Below are positions 12,897-46,972 of a stretch of DNA of 61,030 bases, one piece after another. Source of the stretch: Bacilli bacterium. GTDB lineage: Bacteria; Bacillota_I; Bacilli_A; RFN20; CAG-826. The notes under the pieces were generated by a model. The model made no database searches. It saw nothing but the letters and a program-made list of their open reading frames with translations, and had not been told where the DNA came from. The stretch is from NCBI GenBank assembly GCA_017479485.1, contig JAFVCC010000037.1, forward strand, positions 1 through 61,030. The letters are read 5' to 3'. Position 1 is the first letter of the stretch; every line of letters starts with the position of its first letter. The position numbers and the translations under genes are program-made.

Positions 12897-14282
12897 ATGC
12901 GTTACACGTTTTTCTTCGAGAGCGAGCATCCAAAAATCTTTGCGGCTATTGCGTCCTATAGCGCCGGTATTTTGGCGCAGCGTAGCGTGAGAAACATTCG
13001 CTATTTCAATGGAGAACTGAAATTTTTATTTCTTACTGCTGGCAGTTCCAAGGAAATATCGGTTCTGCTCGACGACGAACGCTTCGATATCGAGCAGTAT
13101 GATCTCGTCGAACGAAATGTGATTTCTTTTGCCATCCGTTCTTTGGCCCGCGCCGATGAAGTCGACGCCCAAACCGTGAACGCGAATTATGCGACCCAGT
13201 TTGCATTAACAAGCGCCTTCCGTACCTTGCAAGCTTTCCTTGGAGGCAGACGATACGTCGCGCTTTGCCGCGATATGATCGATATGAACATGGACAAGTG
13301 CCTCCGCCCTTATATGTATGAGGATTTGGTGAGCAACATGTTCGTTTGCTTTAACAAAAGCATTGGCAAAGACCTTTATGGATTACTAGATTCCATCAAG
13401 GAGACCCTTGAGGAACTCCATTTTGATGAAGAAGAGCTTCGTCGCATCAATTCCGTGGTCGGAAATAAAGGTTCCTTTGACGGATACCATCATTTCGCTT
13501 TGTCTGTGCTTGCCTCGGAAAAACTTGGACCCGCGATGCGTCACATGATTGTCGATGCTTATGTTCCGCTACGTTTCAACGGCAAAGAAACCTCGCCATA
13601 TCTTTCTTCGGACTTGTTCCCGTTCTTTTCCGACGAGGAATTATGCACGTTGTTGATGAACTTGCCTCGAGGCATGAAGGAAACGGTTCGTGAAATTTTT
13701 CAATTCCTTGGCCCTGATGCGGATGCTAAGTTTGCCTCCGCATATAGCAAGAACGTGAACAAGGATCCGGAAATCTTGATGTCTGCACCATGCTTCCCAA
13801 ACTTGCCCACAGAAGTCAAAGCAACGCTGGTGCGTGGAAAGGTGTTCACACCCAAGGCGTCAAATCTAGAAGTAATTCACTATTATGAAACCCTGCAAAA
13901 CGAGGACGAAAAAGATCAAATATTGAGGTTCTGCGAAGATTTTGGTCGTGACGAGTTAAAGAAAGCCTTGCTCGGTAAAGACTTTATTCCAAACCAGTTT
14001 AGCCTTGCAGACCTCGTCGCCTTATCGAGCCATGTCAACTATGGCAGCGCGGTTATGGCCCCGCGTATCAAATCCTACGTGTCGCGCTACATCAGTTTGG
14101 AGATGCCAAGCAATGACCTAGATCAAATTCTCTTGGCTTTAGATGGGGCGGAGTTTCTGCCGCTGATGCAGACGGCGATCTTCCGAGATTGCTTCTCTAG
14201 TCCGGTTGCCCGATTGATCATTGCCGAAAGATATGGCCTTCTGAGCCGTCTGGGTTTAAAGGAGTGGAAGTACCATGATTAG
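12897..14282 (+). CDS. Hypothetical protein overlapping the SNF2 gene
   Basis: 461-aa ORF, 8-bp overlap with next gene; no recognised motif. Confidence 0.7.
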   Translation: MRYTFFFESEHPKIFAAIASYSAGILAQRSVRNIRYFNGELKFLFLTAGSSKEISVLLDDERFDIEQYDLVERNVISFAIRSLARADEVDAQTVNANYATQFALTSAFRTLQAFLGGRRYVALCRDMIDMNMDKCLRPYMYEDLVSNMFVCFNKSIGKDLYGLLDSIKETLEELHFDEEELRRINSVVGNKGSFDGYHHFALSVLASEKLGPAMRHMIVDAYVPLRFNGKETSPYLSSDLFPFFSDEELCTLLMNLPRGMKETVREIFQFLGPDADAKFASAYSKNVNKDPEILMSAPCFPNLPTEVKATLVRGKVFTPKASNLEVIHYYETLQNEDEKDQILRFCEDFGRDELKKALLGKDFIPNQFSLADLVALSSHVNYGSAVMAPRIKSYVSRYISLEMPSNDLDQILLALDGAEFLPLMQTAIFRDCFSSPVARLIIAERYGLLSRLGLKEWKYHD

Positions 14283-17200
14283 TTCTTTTGTTCCAGAATC
14301 CCGTTGGCTGGACCTCGAAGGCGACATCAAGCAGGACGTCTTGCGTTATTACCGCGACCTTTTTGCCCGTGGGGTGGTCCACGTTTATTATGCCTTTGGC
14401 CAAAACGGTCTTCGCTTTGAATGCTATTACGAGAACGACTATGGAAGATGCTTCTTTTCTCTCGCTGGCGAGCTAAAATGCGCTGCGACTTCGTTAAGCG
14501 TTGCTTTAGCGTTATTTATTCGTGACCAAGAAGCGCATGCCGATGAGCCTTGGCTGCGGCGCTTATATGGGGCGGACTATGACACCTTATCGACGCTTGC
14601 TTCTTTGGGGCCGGGCAAGGCCAAGGGATATTTCGAGGCGTCTCAGAAAATCGACGAATTGGCTTACCGCATTGGCAAACAAACAAAACTAGCGACGCGC
14701 CAAAAGCCCAAACTACGCTTCGTTTTAGACCTCGGCGGGACCAAGACCAGCGTCTCGCTTCGAATTGGCTTTACCAAGCTATACATCAACCGCAAAACCG
14801 TCGCCTTCTTGCGCGACTATTATTCCGGGAATGCTCTGACGATTCAGAAAGAACACGTTGTTCTTCCTGCGGAATCTTTCTCTCCAGAAATCGAAAAAGC
14901 GCTGCAATTCCTCTATAACTCCGTTGCCGGAAGCATGTACTATAGCGCGAATTATCCCGCTGTTTTAAACGAAGACAAAACGGTTCAATTCCTCCTTTTG
15001 CTCCAAGGAATGGAGGTTGACCTTAATGACCTTCCCTGCAAAATCTCTTCCATCCATAGAGTTGAGATGAAGCTGAAAGGGGATGGCTCGATCGATTCCT
15101 CACTGCCTTTGCGGGCGAAGGGGTTAAAGTGCTACGGCAAGTATGGCTATATCCTGACTCCAGGCTGCGTTGAGCTTTATGAGTTCCATTCCTCTGCTGC
15201 GGCGGAAGTCTATTCCTTTTTCTCAGCAAACAAGGGGCTTCATGGCGCCTTCCTCGCAGGCGAACTGGCAAAAAAGGTTTTGCCGTTACTCGACGAAGAG
15301 GACCTCTCCGTCGACGAGGAGTTTGCTCTAGCCCACCCCATTCGCCGACCGCACGTCGATTATTTTGTTTCTCTCGACCTTGAAGGCAACTTGCTCTTTG
15401 AAACGAAACTGTTCCTTGGCGAAGAAGAAATCGACGAAGACGCCTTCCGGGCCTTTAGCATGGAAACGGCACATCGCCTTGAGGATTTCCATGAGGAGTT
15501 ATCTCGTCTAGGCTTCCCCGCTTCGGGTATTCGGAAAGGGGACGAGAGCGTCGTGGCTTTCCTTTCCTCTGATTTCTCCAAGCTGCAGACCATCGCGAAT
15601 GTGTATGTCTGCGAGGAACTGCAAAATCGTTCCGTCAGCGCGTCCCCAAACATCAATATCAGCGCGAGTTCGGGAGAAGACTGGTTCTCGGTGGGCCTAT
15701 ATGCGTCGGGCTATACGGAGGAGGAACTACTCGCGATTTATTCCGCTTTCGTACGCAAAAAGAAATTCGTTCGCTTAAAGAACAATTATGTCCTGTTCGA
15801 CCAAAACAACGAAAGCCTCGTTGCTTTGTCCGAAAGCTTCGCGCCGGAGTTGATTGGGAAGCAGCTCCCCTTATATCAAGCCTTGAAGCTCCCTTCTTTA
15901 GGCGGCGATACGGATGATGCGATCAAGAAACTGATCCACGACGTTCAGGACTATGGTTCTTTGGAACTAGGCCCTTTGCCTAAGCCCATCCAAGAGTCCA
16001 TGCGCCCTTACCAACATAGTGGCATCCAGTTCCTCTTTAACCTGTATCGTCTTGGCCTATCCGGCATCCTTTCGGATGACATGGGCCTAGGAAAAACTCT
16101 GCAATCCTTTGGTTTTTTCTCGCTGATCGAGTCCGATCAACCCATCTTGGTGGTTTGCCCGAAGTCCTTGATTTATAACTGGCTTGAGGAGCGGAATAAG
16201 TGGGCCCCTGAGATGGAAGCCCATATCTTAGTCGGCTCACCCAAGGAGCGTCAGGAAATTTATGCGCGCATGCGAAAGCCGGGCAAGGCGGTCTACTTTG
16301 TATCCTATGATACGTTGCGTAACGATATCGACGAACTCGAAGGCGTCACCTTCAGTGCCATGGTACTCGATGAAGGCCAATACATTTCAAACGCCCATGC
16401 CTTGAAGACCCGCGCGGTGAAGCAAGTGGAAGCGGACTCCCGCTTCGTTTTGACGGGAACTCCGGTTCAGAATTCTTTGATGGATCTATGGTCTATCTTC
16501 GATTTCCTGCTCCCCGGTTATTTCCCACCCGTTTCCAAATTCAAAGAACTCTATGGCGCGCTGGCCTTTGATAGCGATGAAGCTCGGGCGAGGCTGCTGG
16601 TTAAGATCAAACCATTCTTGCTGGGCAGGAAGAAGAAGGATGTCTTGCAAGAACTTCCCGACAAGGAAAATGTCACGATGTCTTTGGGCATGAACGATGA
16701 CCAGCTCAAAGTCTATGAATCTTATTTGGCTAAGGCCCGATTGCTCGTCCATGAGGGAACGGGCGCACGTATGAACCTACTCGCCGCGTTGACAAGGCTC
16801 CGACAGATTTGCGTTTCGCCTTCACTCGTGCTTGAAGGGGAATATTCCTCGGCGAAAGTGGAGTATCTACTCGAAGCTCTAACTGGATTAAAACAATCCG
16901 GGCGTAAAGCCATCGTTTTCTCTAGCTTTGTCAGCGCGTTAGAACTCATCGGAAAAGCCTGCAAGAATGCTGGGATTAACCCCGAATATATTACGGGCGA
17001 TACCTCGGCAAAAGTTCGCGTCATTTTGGCGGACCGCTTCAACAAGCCCGACTCCAATATTGATGTGATGCTCGTCTCGTTAAAAGCGGGCGGCACCGGA
17101 TTAAACCTCATCGGCGCAGACACCGTATTCCATCTCGACCCCTGGTGGAACCTCGCCGCGGAACGCCAAGCGGAGGACCGCGCTTACCGTATCGGCCAAA

Positions 17201-35165: not shown

Positions 35166-35390
35166 ATGGCTTTCAAGAAGATGCATTCCCGTCGTAAAGT
35201 TTGCTACTTCACGAAGAACCACATCAAATACATCGATTATAAGGATGTGGAGCTCCTTCAGAGGTTCATCTCTCCCGACGGAAAAATCACCCCGCGTTCC
35301 GCGACCGGCACCAGCGCCAAGTATCAGCGCCAGCTCGCCGTTGCGATCAAAAACGCGCGTTTCATGGGTTTGCTTCCCGAAGTGAAGTAA
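35166..35390 (+). CDS. rpsR: 30S ribosomal protein S18
   Basis: [22 protein letters not shown]; [18 protein letters not shown]. Confidence 0.96.
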
Positions 35391-35820: not shown

Positions 35821-36117
35821 ATGAGAGAAGAACTATTGAAAGGCTTGACCGAGGAACAAATCGAGAAAATCAAAAACTGCAAAGGTCAAGAAGAGATTTT
35901 GAAGATCGCTAAAGAAGAAGGTGTTGAACTCACCGATGACCAATTAGAGGCTGTTTCTGGCGGATGTGGCTTTGTTCAACCCACCAATTGCCCAGGATGC
36001 CAATCCACCAATTTCATTACAGCGGATATCAATATGGATGGCAGTAGAGTGACATATTATTGCAATAACTGCCATCGCAAATTTGTCTCTGATTCTGACG
36101 GCCCAAGAATGCTTTAA
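35821..36117 (+). CDS. Nif11/NHLP-like leader-peptide precursor with Cys-rich core
   Basis: ELTDDQLEAVSGG double-glycine leader (48 aa); 50-aa core with CPGC and CNNC; RBS AAGGAG. Confidence 0.75.
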   Translation: MREELLKGLTEEQIEKIKNCKGQEEILKIAKEEGVELTDDQLEAVSGGCGFVQPTNCPGCQSTNFITADINMDGSRVTYYCNNCHRKFVSDSDGPRML

Positions 36118-36335
36118 TCAAAAAGCTCTTTATACGAATAATGCTGGCGTTGTTCGCCCGTTTTCGATGTTTCTTTATATTCTAGTATGCTCCATTCGCG
36201 AGGAGATGTAGTGTTAATTGCTTTTCTCTGTTAACGGAAATCGGTTGCGTCAGCTTGGCGCGGATCCTTTGCTGTAGGGATAATGAAAAATATAGAAAAC
36301 CCTGCAAATCCAATACAAAATTGTGTTGGGCGTCG

Positions 36336-36416
36336 GCGCCAACTCGCCGTTGCGATCAAAAATGCGCGTTTCTTGGGTTTGCTTCCCGAAGTGAAGTAAT
36401 CTCTCGCTTGTTGTCG
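36336..36416 (+). repeat. Copy 2 of rpsR 3' end plus downstream TCTCTCGCTTGT site
   Basis: Encodes [20 protein letters not shown]; differences CAG/CAA, AAC/AAT, ATG/TTG. Confidence 0.95.
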
Positions 36417-36747
36417 CAGGACGAACCCGATTCCCCGATTTAGGACAAACCGGATTCACCTCGACGACGAAGCAAAAAGCGAATTAGACCGTCCATCGTT
36501 GGGCGGTTTTTTCATGCTCGTTCGCCCCTCGTCCTGGATCTATTTGAAACCATCGACGTCGAAGCTGCTTTATATACTTGTATATAACTCGTTCTGGCTA
36601 GCCCCGGGCGTCCCACGTCGAGCAATCGTCCTTCTGGCTGGCAAATTGTTAGCCGTCGTCGAAATCGCGTCACATGGCTCGAATATGGGCTTCGTCGGAG
36701 AGAACGAACTTCGTACTTTGCAGGAGAATGGTCGTCGTCATGGGACA
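36412..36747. mobile_element. Empty mini-element 3 (336 bp): L3 36412-36473, R3 36689-36747
   Basis: TGTCGCAGGAC...GTCATGGGACA; internal terminator and palindromes. Confidence 0.75.
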
Positions 36748-36810
36748 TGTGTTGTGTCAGGACAAGAGCAATTCTCTCCAACGAGACGAAGCTGATTCTC
36801 CCCGAAGCAC

Positions 36811-36852
36811 GAAGCAACAAATCAACAGGACCGTCCATCGCTGGGTGGTTTT
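36811..36852 (+). repeat. Terminator-like repeat M2, copy upstream of antiporter
   Basis: GAAGCAACAAATCAACAGGACCGTCC (26 bp) identical to 38222..38247, then hairpin and T tract. Confidence 0.85.
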
Positions 36853-37005
36853 CTTATGTTTCTCCTCTTGCTAGTAGTATAATTGGCTCGGGAATGATGT
36901 CTCCCATCTAGAAATAGAGAACCGCAATGAAGTGCTGATGACGTCTATGACTTGTTTTGTCATAGAAATCAGCGCTTTTGTTTCTATGGCAGATGGGGGG
37001 TATCG

Positions 37006-38196
37006 ATGAATATATTTCTGTCTTTGTTTATTATTTTTGGTGGTGGGATCCTCGGTGGGTTTTTATTTGAGAAGATCAAACTCCCCAAACTGGTGTGGTA
37101 TATCATTCTCGGGATTCTTATTGGACCATCTTTGTTCAATATCGTTGATGAAACGTTGCTGTCGGTTTCGTCTCATCTAAGGCAAATCGCTTTGGTCATC
37201 ATATTGACCAGGTCAGGCCTATCTTTGGACATTAAGAACCTAAAGAAAATAGGGCGACCTGCGATATTGATGTGCTTTTTACCCGCTTGTTTTGAAATTG
37301 CGGGCATCACGATATTTGGCCCAATGCTCCTCGGGATATCCTATTTCGAAGCCTTGCTTCTTGGCTCGGTCTTGGCGGCCGTTTCGCCGGCGGTAGTGGT
37401 TCCGAGAATGATTCGCCTAATGGAAGAAGGATATGGAAAAGAACACTGCGTGCCCGAACTTGTGATGGCGGGGGCATCTTGTGACGACATCTTTGTAATC
37501 GTCCTTTTCTATTCGTTCAAGAATCTGGTCGCAACGTCCACCTTTGACGCTTGGAGCGTCGGGCAAATCCCCATTTCGATCGTCTCCGGTGTCATTTTGG
37601 GCATCGGAGTAGGCTTCTTGATGGTTTTAGCCATTCGATACATGAAACTAAATAGAATCGTCCATGTCATTTTGATGCTCGGTCTCTCCTTCGGGATGCT
37701 CGCCCTCGAGAATGCCTTGAAACCGTATTTCAGCGTTTCGTCTCTATTAGCCATCATCGTCATGGCATTTGTGGTGGGCGTCTTTAAAAAAGAGGAAGCG
37801 AAGGAGATGCAGAAATCCTATAACGGCTTATGGCAAGGTTTTGAAATCCTATTGTTCGCTCTCGTTGGCATTGCGGTCGATGTTCGTTACGCTTTTTCAA
37901 AAGAAGGGGCAATCATCGTTGGGCTGGTTTTCATTGCGTTGGTATTTAGAAGTTTAGGCGTGTTTTGCAGCATAATTGCAACGAAATTCACTTGGAAAGA
38001 AAAACTATATATCGTCATTTCTTATCTCCCTAAGGCGACCGTTCAAGCATCGATTGGGGCGATTGCTTTGTCCGAAGGCCTTGCTTGCGGCACGTTGGTG
38101 CTGACCGCTGCGGTGGTGGCAATATTGATAACCGCTCCATTGGGTGCGATATTGATGGATAACCTGAAAAACAAATTGCTTAAGAGGGAGGCGTAG
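37006..38196 (+). CDS. Cation:proton antiporter (CPA1/NhaP-like)
   Basis: About 12 TM; LGILIGP, ILTRSGL, AAVSPAVVVP, GASCDD, PKATVQA; start set at MNIFLS. Confidence 0.85.
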   Translation: MNIFLSLFIIFGGGILGGFLFEKIKLPKLVWYIILGILIGPSLFNIVDETLLSVSSHLRQIALVIILTRSGLSLDIKNLKKIGRPAILMCFLPACFEIAGITIFGPMLLGISYFEALLLGSVLAAVSPAVVVPRMIRLMEEGYGKEHCVPELVMAGASCDDIFVIVLFYSFKNLVATSTFDAWSVGQIPISIVSGVILGIGVGFLMVLAIRYMKLNRIVHVILMLGLSFGMLALENALKPYFSVSSLLAIIVMAFVVGVFKKEEAKEMQKSYNGLWQGFEILLFALVGIAVDVRYAFSKEGAIIVGLVFIALVFRSLGVFCSIIATKFTWKEKLYIVISYLPKATVQASIGAIALSEGLACGTLVLTAAVVAILITAPLGAILMDNLKNKLLKREA

Positions 38197-38221
38197 TGAA
38201 CTTCGACTCTTTTATAGGCAA

Positions 38222-38265
38222 GAAGCAACAAATCAACAGGACCGTCCGTTTTTGAGCGGTTTTTT
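38222..38265 (+). repeat. Terminator-like repeat M2, copy downstream of antiporter
   Basis: 26-bp identity with 36811..36836. Confidence 0.85.
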
Positions 38266-38656
38266 CATGTCCGTCCCTCGTCTCGGACCTATTAGGAACC
38301 ATCGACGTCGAAGCTACTTTATATATTTGTATATAACGCGTTCTGGCTAGCCCCGGTCGGTCCACGTCGCGCGATCGTCCTTGTGGCTGGCAAATTGTTA
38401 GGCGTCGTCCGAATCGCGTCCTATGGCTCGAATATGGGCTTCGTCGGAGAGAGCGAAGTTCGTCCTTTCGGAGAGAATGGGCGTCGTCATGGGACACTTG
38501 TTGTCGCAGGACGAACCCGATTCCCCGATTTAGGACAAACCGGATTCACCCCGACGACGAAGCAACCCAGTCACTCGGCATCGGGAAAGAAGTCCACGGA
38601 TCGTGGCAACTCAAATTGAGATTAAGCCGTCCTTAATAATTGGGCGGTTTTCTCTT

Positions 38657-41277: not shown

Positions 41278-41565
41278 GGTGGGGTGCTCTTTGGTCGCTT
41301 CATTATACCTTATCAACGGAACAAGATAGAGCTTAGTCGGAGAGAGCGAAGTTCGTCCTTTCGGAGAGAATAGGCGTCGCCATGGGACAGTTGTTGTTGT
41401 GCCAGGACGAGAACAATTCTCCAAGATAATACGAAGAACGTTCTCCCCGAGACACGAAGCAAAAGCGAATTAGACCGTCCCTCTGAGCGGCTTTTTATGC
41501 TTTGGATATGTGGATTATCAATCACAAATCGAAGATAATTAACATGGTTAAGGAGGCTAAATAAA

Positions 41566-43259: not shown

Positions 43260-43469
43260 TCGGCCGCGTCGGGCGATATCGATTCAAGCGAGTGAATTAT
43301 AGCATCTGTCGATTCTGGGCCACACGGGTCGAACATGGGCCCCGTCGGAGAGAGCGGAGTTTGTTCTTTTTCCGAAGAATTGGCGTCGTCATGGGAAATC
43401 TGTAAATAGTCGCTAATATATTATCAAATAACATTGGATATATAGGTAAAAATGCTAAAATATTAGCGT

Positions 43470-43760
43470 ATGGAAGAAGAAGCATTGCAATTTGTCACTT
43501 ACTATGAAAAGCAATTAGAAATTGCGAAACGTTTTATCGTTATTAGAAAGAGTAAAAAGGTATCACAACAGAGATTATCTGTTCTTTCTGGTGTGTCGTA
43601 TGCATCCATCCGAAGATTTGAAAAAACGGGTGATATATCTTTGGCATCATTAGTTAAACTTGCCTTAGCGTTACAACTATATGATGACTTGGATAATTTG
43701 TTTAAAAATCATCTGACTTATAAATCCATTGAGGAAATAATTAATGATCAGAAAGATTGA
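43470..43760 (+). CDS. XRE HTH antitoxin (HipB-like)
   Basis: SQQRLSVLSGVSYASIRRFE; overlaps hipA start. Confidence 0.8.
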   Translation: MEEEALQFVTYYEKQLEIAKRFIVIRKSKKVSQQRLSVLSGVSYASIRRFEKTGDISLASLVKLALALQLYDDLDNLFKNHLTYKSIEEIINDQKD

Positions 43761-44835
43761 GGTTTTTGCCAGCAAAATTAAAGTAGGCACCCTTGCTTTA
43801 ACAAACGATAATAGAGTGGCTTTTCAATATACAGATGAATGGGTAGAAAAAGGATTCTCGATTAACCCATTTAAACTCCCTTTATCGAAGCAACTTTTTT
43901 ATGCAACATCACCGCATTTTAAAGGTCTTTTTGGAGTTTTCGCAGATTCTTTACCAGATAGTTATGGCGAATTATTGTTGGACCGCTATTTGAAAAGAAA
44001 GAATATAAATATTAGTGACTTAACGTGTCTAGATAGACTTGCTTATGTCGGTTGTTCAGGGATGGGGTTATTGGAATATATACCTGATTTCAGTGAAGAT
44101 ACTGATAGAAGCAATATTGATTTTGATGCTGTTCAAAAAGATTGCATCGACCTATTAGATTCAAAAAAAGTCGATAACATTACTAATCTTTTTTCCTTGG
44201 GCGGATCTAGTGGCGGCGCGAGACCGAAATCATTAATTAAATATGATGGCGAGGATTATATTGTTAAGTTCTCTTCCAAATTTGATCCTAAAAACATAGC
44301 TGAACTTGAATTTAAATATATGTCTCTTGCCAAGGAAGCCAGAATTAATATACCTACAATCAAGTTGGTTACTTCTAAATCTGGCAATAAGTATTTTTTG
44401 ATCAAGAGATTTGATCGAGAATCCAACAAGAAGATTCATATGATAAGTGCGGCCGCACTATTAGAAGTCGATTTTAGAGCACCTTGTCTTGATTATAATG
44501 AATTAATAAAACTGACTAGGATAATAACGAGAAATGAAAATGATGTTTTAGAGATGTTCAGAAGAATGGTTTTTAATGTTCTAATTGATAATCAAGATGA
44601 CCACGCTAAAAACTTTTCATTCATCTACGATGGTGTAATCAAAACATATAGGTTATCTCCTGCATATGACATAACTCCGGGCAGGACATATTATGGCGAA
44701 CATACGACATCAGTTAACGGAAAAGGTAAAAATATAACAGACGATGATATGCTTAGGGTCGCGATTAATAACAAAATAAATCTTGCTACCGCACAACGAA
44801 TTATTGAAATGTGTAAATGCATTCTAAATAAATAG
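43744..44835 (+). CDS. hipA: HipA-family kinase toxin
   Basis: FADSLPDSYG, SSGGARPK, IKRFDR, NQDDHAKNFS, LSPAYD; AT-rich DNA. Confidence 0.9.
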   Translation: MIRKIEVFASKIKVGTLALTNDNRVAFQYTDEWVEKGFSINPFKLPLSKQLFYATSPHFKGLFGVFADSLPDSYGELLLDRYLKRKNINISDLTCLDRLAYVGCSGMGLLEYIPDFSEDTDRSNIDFDAVQKDCIDLLDSKKVDNITNLFSLGGSSGGARPKSLIKYDGEDYIVKFSSKFDPKNIAELEFKYMSLAKEARINIPTIKLVTSKSGNKYFLIKRFDRESNKKIHMISAAALLEVDFRAPCLDYNELIKLTRIITRNENDVLEMFRRMVFNVLIDNQDDHAKNFSFIYDGVIKTYRLSPAYDITPGRTYYGEHTTSVNGKGKNITDDDMLRVAINNKINLATAQRIIEMCKCILNK

Positions 44836-44878
44836 GAAACAACAAACCAATAAGACCGTCCATCACTGAGCGATTTTT
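44836..44878 (+). repeat. Terminator-like repeat M2 immediately after hipA stop
   Basis: GAAACAACAAACCAATAAGACCGTCCATCACTGAGCGATTTTT resembles 36811..36852. Confidence 0.7.
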
Positions 44879-44928
44879 AATAACCCCTGTTTGTTGAAAA
44901 AACATAAACAAATTTATATAGATATTTT

Positions 44929-45888
44929 ATGAACGATTCAGCGCCTCTAGCTTTATTGGATGAAAGCCAAATCAAGGACCTTATTTATGAAGTCCGCGGT
45001 CAAAAGGTAATGCTAGATTTTGATTTGGCCAGAATCTATGGTTATGGGACATCTGCTTTTAATCAACAAATTAAGAGGAATTTGGATCGGTTCCCCCAAG
45101 ACTTCTCCTTTCAATTAAGAAAGCAAGAATTTGAGTCCATCTTGCTATCACATTTTGTGACATCAAGTTGGGGCGGGAGAAGGAGTTTGCCGCGCGCATT
45201 TACCGAACAGGGCATATATATGCTCATGACCGTTTTGCATGGCAATCTCGCAATTGAGCAGAGCATAACGCTGATTCGTCTTTTTAGATCCATGAAGGAC
45301 TATATTGCGGAAACACAATCTTTAAGTTCGACCAACGAGGTCCTTGCTTTGACTAACCAAGTACGGGCAAACACGGAGGCTATTGCAAAAGTCGAAGGAA
45401 AACTGGAGATGGTGATGGATAGTTTTATCGACCCGTCCACCTATAAATCCTTCTTAATTATGGATGGCGAGAGAATCGAATCCGACATTGCTTACCAACG
45501 GATTTATTCTATGGCGAAGCAAAGTATTTATTTGATTGACGACTACATCGACGTCAAGACGATCCAGCTGCTCAAACCCTGCGATTCGGGCGTGCGCATC
45601 ATCGTCTTTTCCGACAACAAGGCCAGAAATTCGCTGACCCAGTCGTTCATCGTGGATTTTATTGCCGACCGTCCCGATCTCCATATCGAATTTAAAAAGA
45701 CCAAGGGAAGGTTCCATGACCGCTACGTGATTTTGGATTATCCCGACAAAACCCGGGTCTTCCACTGCGGAGCGTCCTCCAAAGACGGCGGAAACAAAAT
45801 AACAACGATAATGGAAGTGGAGAATCCGGAAGCCTATCTTAATTTGATTTCTGATATTCTCTCAAACGAGGAGCTGATTCTTCCGTGA
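44929..45888 (+). CDS. ORF6N-domain DNA-binding protein with C-terminal extension
   Basis: IYEVRGQKVMLDFDLARIYG, KRNLDRFPQDF, AFTEQGIYML. Confidence 0.85.
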   Translation: MNDSAPLALLDESQIKDLIYEVRGQKVMLDFDLARIYGYGTSAFNQQIKRNLDRFPQDFSFQLRKQEFESILLSHFVTSSWGGRRSLPRAFTEQGIYMLMTVLHGNLAIEQSITLIRLFRSMKDYIAETQSLSSTNEVLALTNQVRANTEAIAKVEGKLEMVMDSFIDPSTYKSFLIMDGERIESDIAYQRIYSMAKQSIYLIDDYIDVKTIQLLKPCDSGVRIIVFSDNKARNSLTQSFIVDFIADRPDLHIEFKKTKGRFHDRYVILDYPDKTRVFHCGASSKDGGNKITTIMEVENPEAYLNLISDILSNEELILP

Positions 45889-46622
45889 AACAATTGAAAG
45901 ACAAGGTCAAAGAAATCCGCAATAGGGAAGGCTTATCCCAAGAAGAAATGGGGAAGAGGGTAGGCTATACCAACCGAGCGAGCATCAACAAAATCGAAAA
46001 CGGCAATGGCGATGTCCCTTTCGATAAGCTGATTGACCTGATAAACGAGTATCTTCTTGAATTAAATGACTTAACGAACAAAGATGTAGTCGAATACTCA
46101 TTACGAGACCTTAAACTGGACGATTGGAAAGAACTGATCGTCGTCTATAAAGACGTCATGTGTGTCCCGTTCTTCAATTCGGATAATTGCCACGGCGATA
46201 TCTTCTATTATTCGACTGAGGAGCGAATGAAGAAGGCAATACGCTTTTGGATAGATTCTACCTCAAAGGGACACTTCGTCCGAAAAGTCATCATAGACAA
46301 CTCGAATAATCGAGCGATTGGAACCATCGAATATTTCATTCGGCAAAACGAGCCGAATTATAATGACGTCATTCTCCTTCGAGTAGATGTGCATCATTAC
46401 TATGAACAAAAGAAGGCACTCGTGAAGATCTTTAGGATCGCAATAAAAGAAGCCTTTTCCGCTTTTGGGAGGCTGCCGTTATTGACGAAAGGGTGGAGCT
46501 ATGCCGTGGAACGAAAAGAAGCTTTGTCCTTCTTGGGCTTCAAAGAGTGTAGCGAACCGCTCATTGGTCACGAAAACGAGTCGTTTCAACACTATTGGCT
46601 GGTCCAAAACAAAGACGTGTGA
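45885..46622 (+). CDS. XRE HTH fused to a GNAT-like domain
   Basis: SQEEMGKRVGYTNRASINKIE; C-terminal fold assignment weaker. Confidence 0.65.
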   Translation: MKQLKDKVKEIRNREGLSQEEMGKRVGYTNRASINKIENGNGDVPFDKLIDLINEYLLELNDLTNKDVVEYSLRDLKLDDWKELIVVYKDVMCVPFFNSDNCHGDIFYYSTEERMKKAIRFWIDSTSKGHFVRKVIIDNSNNRAIGTIEYFIRQNEPNYNDVILLRVDVHHYYEQKKALVKIFRIAIKEAFSAFGRLPLLTKGWSYAVERKEALSFLGFKECSEPLIGHENESFQHYWLVQNKDV

Positions 46623-46711
46623 TTAGCAAACCAATGGCTCGAATATGGGCCTCATCGGAGAGAACAGAGTCTGTTCTTTTTCTGAGAATCGGCGTCGTCA
46701 TGGAACATATT

Positions 46712-46780
46712 TGGAGTAGGACGGTTGTGCTTTGTCTCAGCTGGTAAAACGGTTTTCCTCACAAAGCATTAGTCGAAGCA
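46712..46780. repeat. Degenerate seventh left end
   Basis: TGGAGTAG-GAC start; CGAAGCA near expected offset; follows R7 after 4 bp. Confidence 0.4.
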
Positions 46781-46972
46781 TATGTGGGCGTTATTGAATG
46801 TAAAAGAATGGCATATATCTAAAAAGCCACAATCTAAGAAATTATCCAAAAATTCCTGCAGAACAAGGATATTTTTCAATTCATGACGGGCTTGGATTAC
46901 GTCGCTACAGCCTTCTTCCTCTTGTGTTAAGAATGAGATAAAGCGTCTATAATTTGGGCAAGGAGTTCCCCT

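Follow-up and report, generated by a model that had tools for sequence, protein, structure and literature searches.

A terminator-like module as the apparent boundary of cargo exchange between transposon-like units behind rpsR in uncultured rumen Bacilli

Comparison of related assemblies by sequence indicates that the exchange of cargo between unrelated transposon-like carrier units is real and, for the antiporter, recent, and that it is bounded by M2, a conserved hairpin module of about 45 nt that stands on both sides of an antiporter gene in the window (the whole stretch of 61,030 nucleotides that was analysed). M2 is probably, on balance, a portable Rho-independent terminator whose same-orientation copies uncouple cargo from carrier by homology-dependent recombination. 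We regard the antiporter unit as an example of the modular evolution of transposons, with recombination taking place at a conserved module inside the unit.

Units stacked behind rpsR and their M2 module

The genes rpsF-ssb-rpsR are followed in the window by about 11 kb of accessory genes, which encode a Nif11-type peptide, the antiporter, an ABC-2 transporter, RhuM with HTH-GNAT, hipBA, and ORF6N with HTH (Pfam families Nif11, Na_H_Exchanger, ABC-2, RhuM, GNAT, HipBA, ORF6N and HTH). Repeated modules separate these genes from each other and, within the metagenome-assembled genome (MAG, 62% complete), are limited to the window and to contig C21. The stack begins 12 bp past the rpsR stop codon, and in at least eight related assemblies, among them L042/L113, L111, L114, L130, L137, L138 and L139, the first unit likewise lies about 12 bp downstream of this codon. 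TGT...ACA termini of the carrier units were confirmed in related assemblies. The units are 0.3-3 kb long, are separated by spacers of 5 bp and include no transposase gene, and are therefore non-autonomous. An empty unit, made up of left (L) end, M2, arm and right (R) end, is present in the window, and the same layout lies directly behind rpsR in G227 and G024. The hosts are uncultured rumen Bacilli with genomes of 1-2 Mb that are labelled 'Erysipelotrichaceae' or 'Mollicutes'.

An autonomous transposase partner for these units was considered and not found. No match to rve (TnsB-type transposase) is present in the window's 62% complete MAG; rve matches occur in 37 of 58 genomes of the genus, and none of these genes adjoins unit ends in the 12 loci that were looked at. 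Neither the window nor any of the examined stacks contained a tyrosine or serine recombinase, an rve gene or a transposase. The MAG carries two recombinases of each class (tyrosine and serine) on contigs other than the window's, the tyrosine recombinase (PF00589) matches being on contigs C42 and C48 only.

Table 1 Features of the rpsR locus and of the stacked units in the window
Feature	Position	Strand	Evidence or remarks
rpsR (ribosomal protein S18), landing site	35166..35390	+	Pfam Ribosomal_S18, E 2.6e-25
Empty unit	36412..36747	+	L end (type I), M2 (36465-36517), arm, R end
Left end (type II), antiporter unit	36753..36810	+	Closest L end in L103
M2 copy 1	36811..36859	+	A-rich box and 5' stem (26-mer, 36811-36836), loop, 3' stem, T-run
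Cargo block start	36860..36880	+	TATAAT promoter region to 36883, overlaps first riboswitch bases
Fluoride riboswitch aptamer	36881..36954	+	Rfam RF01734, 37.4 bits (gathering score 34), E 9e-7
Na+/H+ exchanger family gene, 396 aa, cargo	37006..38196	+	Pfam Na_H_Exchanger, E 4e-45
25-nt spacer, stop codon to M2 copy 2	38197..38221	+	Cargo-linked in every two-M2 copy
M2 copy 2	38222..38265	+	26-mer (38222-38247), loop, imperfect 3' stem, T-run
Arm and right end, antiporter unit	38266..38496	+	Best matches about 90%, arms of empty units in L130 and G227
hipBA cassette, in place of the L end of the ORF6N unit	43401..44835	+	Pfam HTH_3, HipA_C, Couple_hipA
Decayed M2 copy, hipA / ORF6N gene boundary	44836..44884	+	

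In all, 56 distinct M2 sequences were gathered, those outside the window and contig C21 coming from about 35 related loci. The sources were the window, C21, 14 genome regions of relatives, 33 matches in a genome collection, about half of which are chance matches in unrelated phyla, and 12 metagenome contigs. Nearly all copies sit directly 3' of an L end (type I, II or III); what comes next is the cargo or, where a unit is empty, its arm and R end. The consensus, cacGAAGCAACAAACCAACAAGACCGTCCcacgtGGGCGGTTTTTT, consists of an A-rich box, a GC hairpin of 7-10 bp and a U-run. In 38 distinct copies the stem is paired in 97.1% of 342 cells and the T-run directly follows the stem-loop in every copy. 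The wobble position of the stem is UG in 29, UA in 6 and CG in 3, all of them standard pairs, and consensus copies fold at -13 to -17 kcal/mol. Covariation lent the hairpin no support, as the stem is almost invariant and double-sided changes were absent across the 38 copies. Viral contigs were also considered as a vehicle for M2 and were discarded, the single match being a chance one inside a coding region.

The anatomy of an intrinsic terminator, a GC-rich stem-loop followed by a T/U run, is found in M2. Because of this anatomy and of its position after the L end, we describe M2 as a fixed module of the left arm, with predicted termination activity. Given the landing site 12 bp behind rpsR, the transcript of the rpsR operon would stop at the first M2 and that of each cargo at the M2 which comes after it, so that each cargo likely uses its own promoter. 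The tolerance of a G-U wobble in the stem points to selection at the level of RNA rather than on a DNA site. M2 resembles known intrinsic terminators in its GC hairpin and T-run and in the A-rich tract upstream, and it resembles those that insulate mobile elements in its place behind rpsR and behind cargo genes and in the promoter that directly follows it. Unlike ordinary intrinsic terminators, it is a single sequence family with a 5' box that is conserved across many genomes, and it is a fixed left-arm part of a transposon-like unit that marks recombination breakpoints.

In the window, the 26-mer GAAGCAACAAATCAACAGGACCGTCC is found in two exact copies that flank the antiporter gene on the + strand (Table 1). 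No further copy with up to three mismatches is present in the window, and none of 100 shuffles contained any match. Both copies continue into a hairpin and T-run; a terminator scan of the window lists 36827-36852 and 38246-38259, and RNA folding of the two copies gave -9.7 and -8.5 kcal/mol. A third copy, which matches the 26-mer at 22 of 26 positions, begins with the first base past the TAG of hipA, and its hairpin is decayed (-2.1 kcal/mol). The earlier note had reported an exact 26-bp direct repeat on either side of the antiporter, a hairpin after each copy, and a related copy on the base after the hipA stop, between hipBA and ORF6N, and all of this was borne out. The 26-mer is part of a longer repeat family, D6, which has members at 36465, 36807, 38218 and 44832 and is also present at 41450 and, in an insertion-bearing version, at about 38555-38650.

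The 98-aa open reading frame at 35821-36117 includes a Nif11-like leader, a double-glycine motif (...LEAVSGG) and a Cys-rich C-terminal part, and possibly encodes a secreted or modified peptide precursor that is carried as cargo. Contig C21 holds two more units (12900-14650, minus strand) in the order paralogue of the HTH gene (45885-46622 in the window), R end, L end of type I, M2, HTH-nucleotidyltransferase, HEPN, a third open reading frame, arm and truncated R end; possibly they are a further part of the same stack or a variant of it. The sequence after the stack begins with TGT.GCAGGA.. (window 46708-46790; L139 from about 3100; L076 1323-1480), and in G005 this 'native' sequence carries an M2-like terminator. 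It may be an old unit of another subtype rather than the original chromosome.

The antiporter cargo on diverged carriers

The cargo block of the antiporter unit consists of a promoter, a fluoride riboswitch, the Na+/H+ exchanger gene and a 25-nt tail, and across nine assemblies it is near-invariant from the M2 T-run onward. An exact-protein look-up of the antiporter returned only one identical contig of 2027 nt, from a different sample and with the same context, which reproduces both of the window's junctions. Antiporter cargo between two M2 copies was found in at least eight other assemblies. The complete arrangement, form A (L end, M2, promoter, riboswitch, antiporter, 25 nt, M2, arm, R end), is carried by the window, L113 (G255), L111, L114, L116, L123, L135 and L138, and L109 carries an older relative of it with an antiporter 91% identical to that of the window. 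In form B the L end, M2, promoter, riboswitch and antiporter are followed by only the last ~38 nt of the R end (G024, G140, L129, L130, L134, L137 and L131), while L139 is a hybrid with an A-type 5' end and a B-type 3' end. The rpsR gene of L137 (metagenome contig Ga0326511_10098701) is 99.6% identical to that of the window, yet the first unit behind it is of form B, and the stack is therefore polymorphic within the species.

The cargo and its carriers differ in age. Across six full form-A assemblies the 1368-nt (1.37-kb) cargo is 99.0-99.6% identical, whereas the L ends of the same units are 63-86% and their arms and R ends 57-92% identical; the rpsR genes of these assemblies are 75-89% identical to that of the window. 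The L end in front of this one cargo is of type I, of type II or a hybrid, and the R ends that follow it are of at least two families (the L116 unit ends with ...CCGTCCTGGAACA). The arms of other antiporter units match the arm of the window's unit at only 87-89%, and the arms of empty units match it equally well or better. In L109 an MNT/HEPN cargo takes the place of the arm behind the second M2, forming an antiporter-M2-MNT/HEPN fusion, and this MNT/HEPN cargo has its own L end and M2 in C21, L103 and L130. A contrast is provided by unit 6 (RhuM and GNAT), which has one M2 and is 91.4% identical to its counterpart in L103 over L end, cargo and R end alike, having co-diverged as a whole. The ABC-2 cargo is about 80% identical elsewhere. 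Set against the co-diverged unit 6, a 99% identical cargo on diverged carriers must therefore be much younger than the carriers themselves.

Forms with and without cargo are bounded by M2 in two ways: empty L-M2-arm-R units as against filled units, and L-M2-MNT units as against antiporter-M2-MNT in L109. The proposal of the earlier note that genes may be gained and lost as M2-delimited cassettes, separately from transposition, is thus supported in part: cargo moves independently of the unit ends with M2 as the joint, M2-bounded alleles, which the note itself had made the test, exist in both kinds, and the cargo is younger than its diverged carriers. Of the two mechanisms that the note offered, site-specific and short-homology recombination, the site-specific one is not supported.

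Since all of these sequences come from metagenome assemblies or MAGs, and species that live together in the rumen carry almost the same cargo, the pattern could be an artefact in which the cargo of several co-resident species was joined to the wrong flanks at the short repeat. We find this very hard to credit. The M2 stretch of 26-45 nt is shorter than the k of 141 given in several contig names, so that the junctions should be spanned by k-mers; the same junction types recur in the independent projects RUG, RGIG, UBA and JGI; and the identical 2027-nt contig from another sample has both junctions of the window.

The perfect match between the two M2 copies is peculiar to the window. In the seven other assemblies that include both, the copies match at 23 of 26 positions: copy 1 reads ...AAACCAA[C/T]AAG..., whereas in copy 2 the sequence ...AAATCAACAGG... 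is linked to the cargo. In the window alone, copy 1 has the allele of copy 2 as well, its A-box being ATCAACAGG, which in other assemblies goes with copy 2. The identity at all 26 positions is thus a lineage-specific trace of interaction between M2 copies, and its simplest reading suggests that copy 2 has recently converted a short stretch of copy 1. All form-A units share one identical junction of the 25-nt tail with the A-box of M2, and this junction therefore arose once. Neither the perfect 26-mer as a hallmark of the junction nor repeated capture at M2 is supported by these comparisons. A decayed L or R end, which would point to the fusion of two stacked units, was examined as the source of the 25-nt tail and was not supported (p 0.014-0.97 across targets against shuffles, none surviving multiple testing).

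Breakpoints within M2 and the means of exchange

Among form-A units, identity collapses inside M2 on the left and on the right. Left of the cargo, the units become nearly invariant only when the 3' stem and T-run of M2 copy 1 are reached. To the right, they agree in the 25-nt tail, the A-box and GACCGTCC of copy 2 and begin to vary at the loop. Both limits of the conserved block thus occupy corresponding positions in the two M2 copies. The breakpoints themselves are spread over A-box, loop and 3' stem, and no single nucleotide serves all of them. Loops vary to the left and to the right (atcgct, cacgt, ctcgt, ctcgc, gttttt), the M2 copy 1 of L111 is identical to that of L114 although the L end is of type II in L111 and of type I in L114, and L116 and L135 have about 25 nt in common past M2 copy 2 before they diverge. 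The arms of the carrier units are themselves mosaic.

This mosaic structure, together with the single junction, is what might be expected if the two M2 copies were only the scar of one old fusion of two neighbouring units or of a single illegitimate join. On such an account the copies now simply act as terminators, exchange at M2 is no longer going on, and the mosaic results from transposition of whole units and from conversion of their ends by resident units, with M2 as the inner limit of backbone homology. A possible precursor exists in L130, where a one-M2 antiporter unit is followed by an empty unit, and the R end of the L116 antiporter unit is 99% identical to that of the neighbouring unit. 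However, the 25-nt tail has no detectable derivation from an L or R end, and conversion of the ends inward should leave a variable length of arm linked to the cargo, whereas linkage nearly always stops within M2. Nor is the cargo-M2-cargo fusion of L109 a product of end conversion. We consider a fusion scar unlikely, though it has enough in its favour to be taken seriously.

Sequence homology was also compared along the backbones, and the idea that M2 is the best patch of homology between them was rejected, the longest exact match having a median of 14.5 nt in M2 and of 21 nt in the arms and R ends. Plain homologous recombination therefore gives no obvious reason for right-hand breaks to start at the M2 loop. 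No two form-A units have arms that are more than 92% identical, so that every sampled lineage must have changed its backbone, which hints at a more directed process.

On a rival reading, M2 would be a dedicated attC-like site, and a specific recombinase, or an unseen transposase of the units acting on the hairpin, would cut out a two-M2 cassette as a circle and place it in any other M2. Both limits of the 99% block lie at equivalent places round the hairpin apex, and the block therefore equals a circle with exactly one M2. All eight units of the 99% clade have different backbones, right-hand breaks start at the M2 loop even though arms and R ends offer exact matches of equal or greater length, and the antiporter is both the sole cargo observed with two M2 copies and the sole one that is much younger than its carrier. 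In addition, two independent junctions that lack an L end, those of the antiporter and of hipA, start within 1-2 nt of the same A-box base. These points are opposed by the way in which A-box SNPs, loops and 3' stems assort differently, one pair being alike 25 nt into the arm, and by the lack of a tyrosine or serine recombinase or rve in the window and all examined stacks. M2 is, moreover, a plain hairpin of 7-10 bp with a U-run and has no attC-like R/L boxes or extrahelical bases, and its G-U wobble speaks for selection on RNA rather than DNA. No circle-type junctions were seen among the fetched loci. A dedicated site of this kind appears improbable to us, and we give equally little weight to the version in which the two-M2 cargo is a mobile cassette that leaves as a one-M2 circle and enters the M2 of other units through a hairpin-directed activity without an integrase.

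Homology-dependent recombination at M2 is favoured as the better fit than an integron-like site-specific system, because the breakpoints are scattered, no recombinase is nearby and the wobble is of the RNA type; it is from these patterns that we infer the enzymology. The site-specific alternative in the earlier note is unsupported on the first two of these grounds. In the scheme that we prefer, M2 belongs to the left arm of transposase-less TGT...ACA units that lie head-to-tail downstream of rpsR in rumen Bacilli with small genomes. All units carry M2 in one orientation, and recombination between two M2 copies would therefore separate cargo from carrier. It might do so by deletion between the M2 copies of neighbouring stacked units, by excision of a circle with one M2 that re-enters at another M2, or by gene conversion between M2 copies. 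In the antiporter unit, the second M2 after the cargo block is continuous with a normal arm and right end.

In integrons, gene cassettes are moved by IntI through recombination of attC with attI or attC, and Tn7 carries a class 2 integron near its left end. The antiporter cargo resembles integron cassettes in being bracketed by hairpin-forming repeats, in a conserved block that equals a circle with one site, and in its exchange among carriers that are transposons. Unlike integrons, the stack and window encode no IntI or other recombinase, M2 has none of the attC boxes (R''-L''/L'-R'), extrahelical bases or GTTRRRY core, the cargo has its own promoter and riboswitch, and the breakpoints are scattered instead of falling at one phosphodiester bond. 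In the minimal mobile elements of Neisseria and in mosaic Tn3-family transposons, which recombine via res, gene cassettes are swapped between conserved flanks, and the ages of carrier and cargo differ. The present units are similar to both in the swap of whole genes and in carriers and cargo of different ages. The flanks in those systems are kilobase-long genes (Neisseria) or a resolvase site with its enzyme (Tn3), and here they are a terminator of about 45 nt.

Tn7-like transposons, which use glmS, tRNA and other sites, share with the rpsR units the TGT...ACA ends, the 5-bp spacers, a fixed distance behind a conserved gene and variable cargo. The rpsR units differ from them in their size of 0.3-3 kb, in the lack of a transposase, in the use of rpsR as the site and in having a terminator module as the joint of exchange. 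A literature search for Tn7-like elements at rpsR found no paper that linked the two in the library searched. Homologous recombination has been proposed as a route of cargo capture in Tn7-like transposons, without being quantified, and its relative share was not addressed (Benler et al. 2021, PMC8649781). The rpsR units bear on the question of how Tn7-like and other site-specific transposons gain and trade cargo. Their fluoride-resistance-type cargo keeps about 99% identity between species with far more diverged carriers and rpsR genes, and a riboswitch-controlled transporter has spread horizontally among uncultured rumen Bacilli. With breakpoints that fall in a 45-nt terminator module, these units are a natural system for asking if a small insulator doubles as a joint for cargo exchange. 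The hairpin-directed reading, if it were true, would amount to an integrase-less, integron-like capture layer nested in Tn7-like units at rpsR.

hipBA, ORF6N and more distant antiporters

An intact L-M2-ORF6N unit is present in L131, and the hipBA cassette of the window fills exactly the place of that L end. Homologues of hipBA with 69-79% identity were found in many genera, and the homology ends at the stop codon. The junction of hipA with M2 was seen in the window and in no other assembly examined. In L099, at about 1378, an M2 T-run is joined directly to an ORF6N gene without its first ~20 codons, a joint that we take as a further rearrangement endpoint at the M2 T-run.

In G005 (L076, 1098-3300), G285 (L077) and G225 (L079) the hipA stop is followed at once by sequence like the 3' tail of rpsR, as confirmed by tblastn in G005 and G225 and read from the sequence only in G285. 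The order in G005 is rpsR, L end, M2-like terminator, hipBA, rpsR tail, L end, M2-like terminator, arm and R end, and the hipBA cargo is flanked by a direct repeat of about 210 nt. This layout is as would be given by Campbell-type entry of a circle. The window also contains a second rpsR tail, behind the Nif11 gene (36333-36402), and it is of the same form as the tail in G005.

Riboswitch-antiporter genes were also observed outside the rpsR units. In other genera of the same family, with lower GC (L059-L069 and L073), the antiporter has about 86% amino acid identity and is flanked on both sides by a different hairpin module, cgttaac-ACAGTAtcga...tcGGTACTGT-TTTTT (for example upstream in L060 and L064 and downstream in L069). 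In L060 and L064 this module lies directly 3' of the 3' end of a tRNA, and it is often preceded by two 22-nt direct repeats (..CACTTTAGTGTTCTGCCCCC). It looks like a second carrier family with a terminator-like joint of its own. Distant homologues of the antiporter within the genus (L071, from G286, and L072, from G241:C4; 76-79% amino acid identity) are preceded by R-end-like sequence (..ggagaatcgtcgctcgtggcgat..), and these copies may also reside in mobile units.
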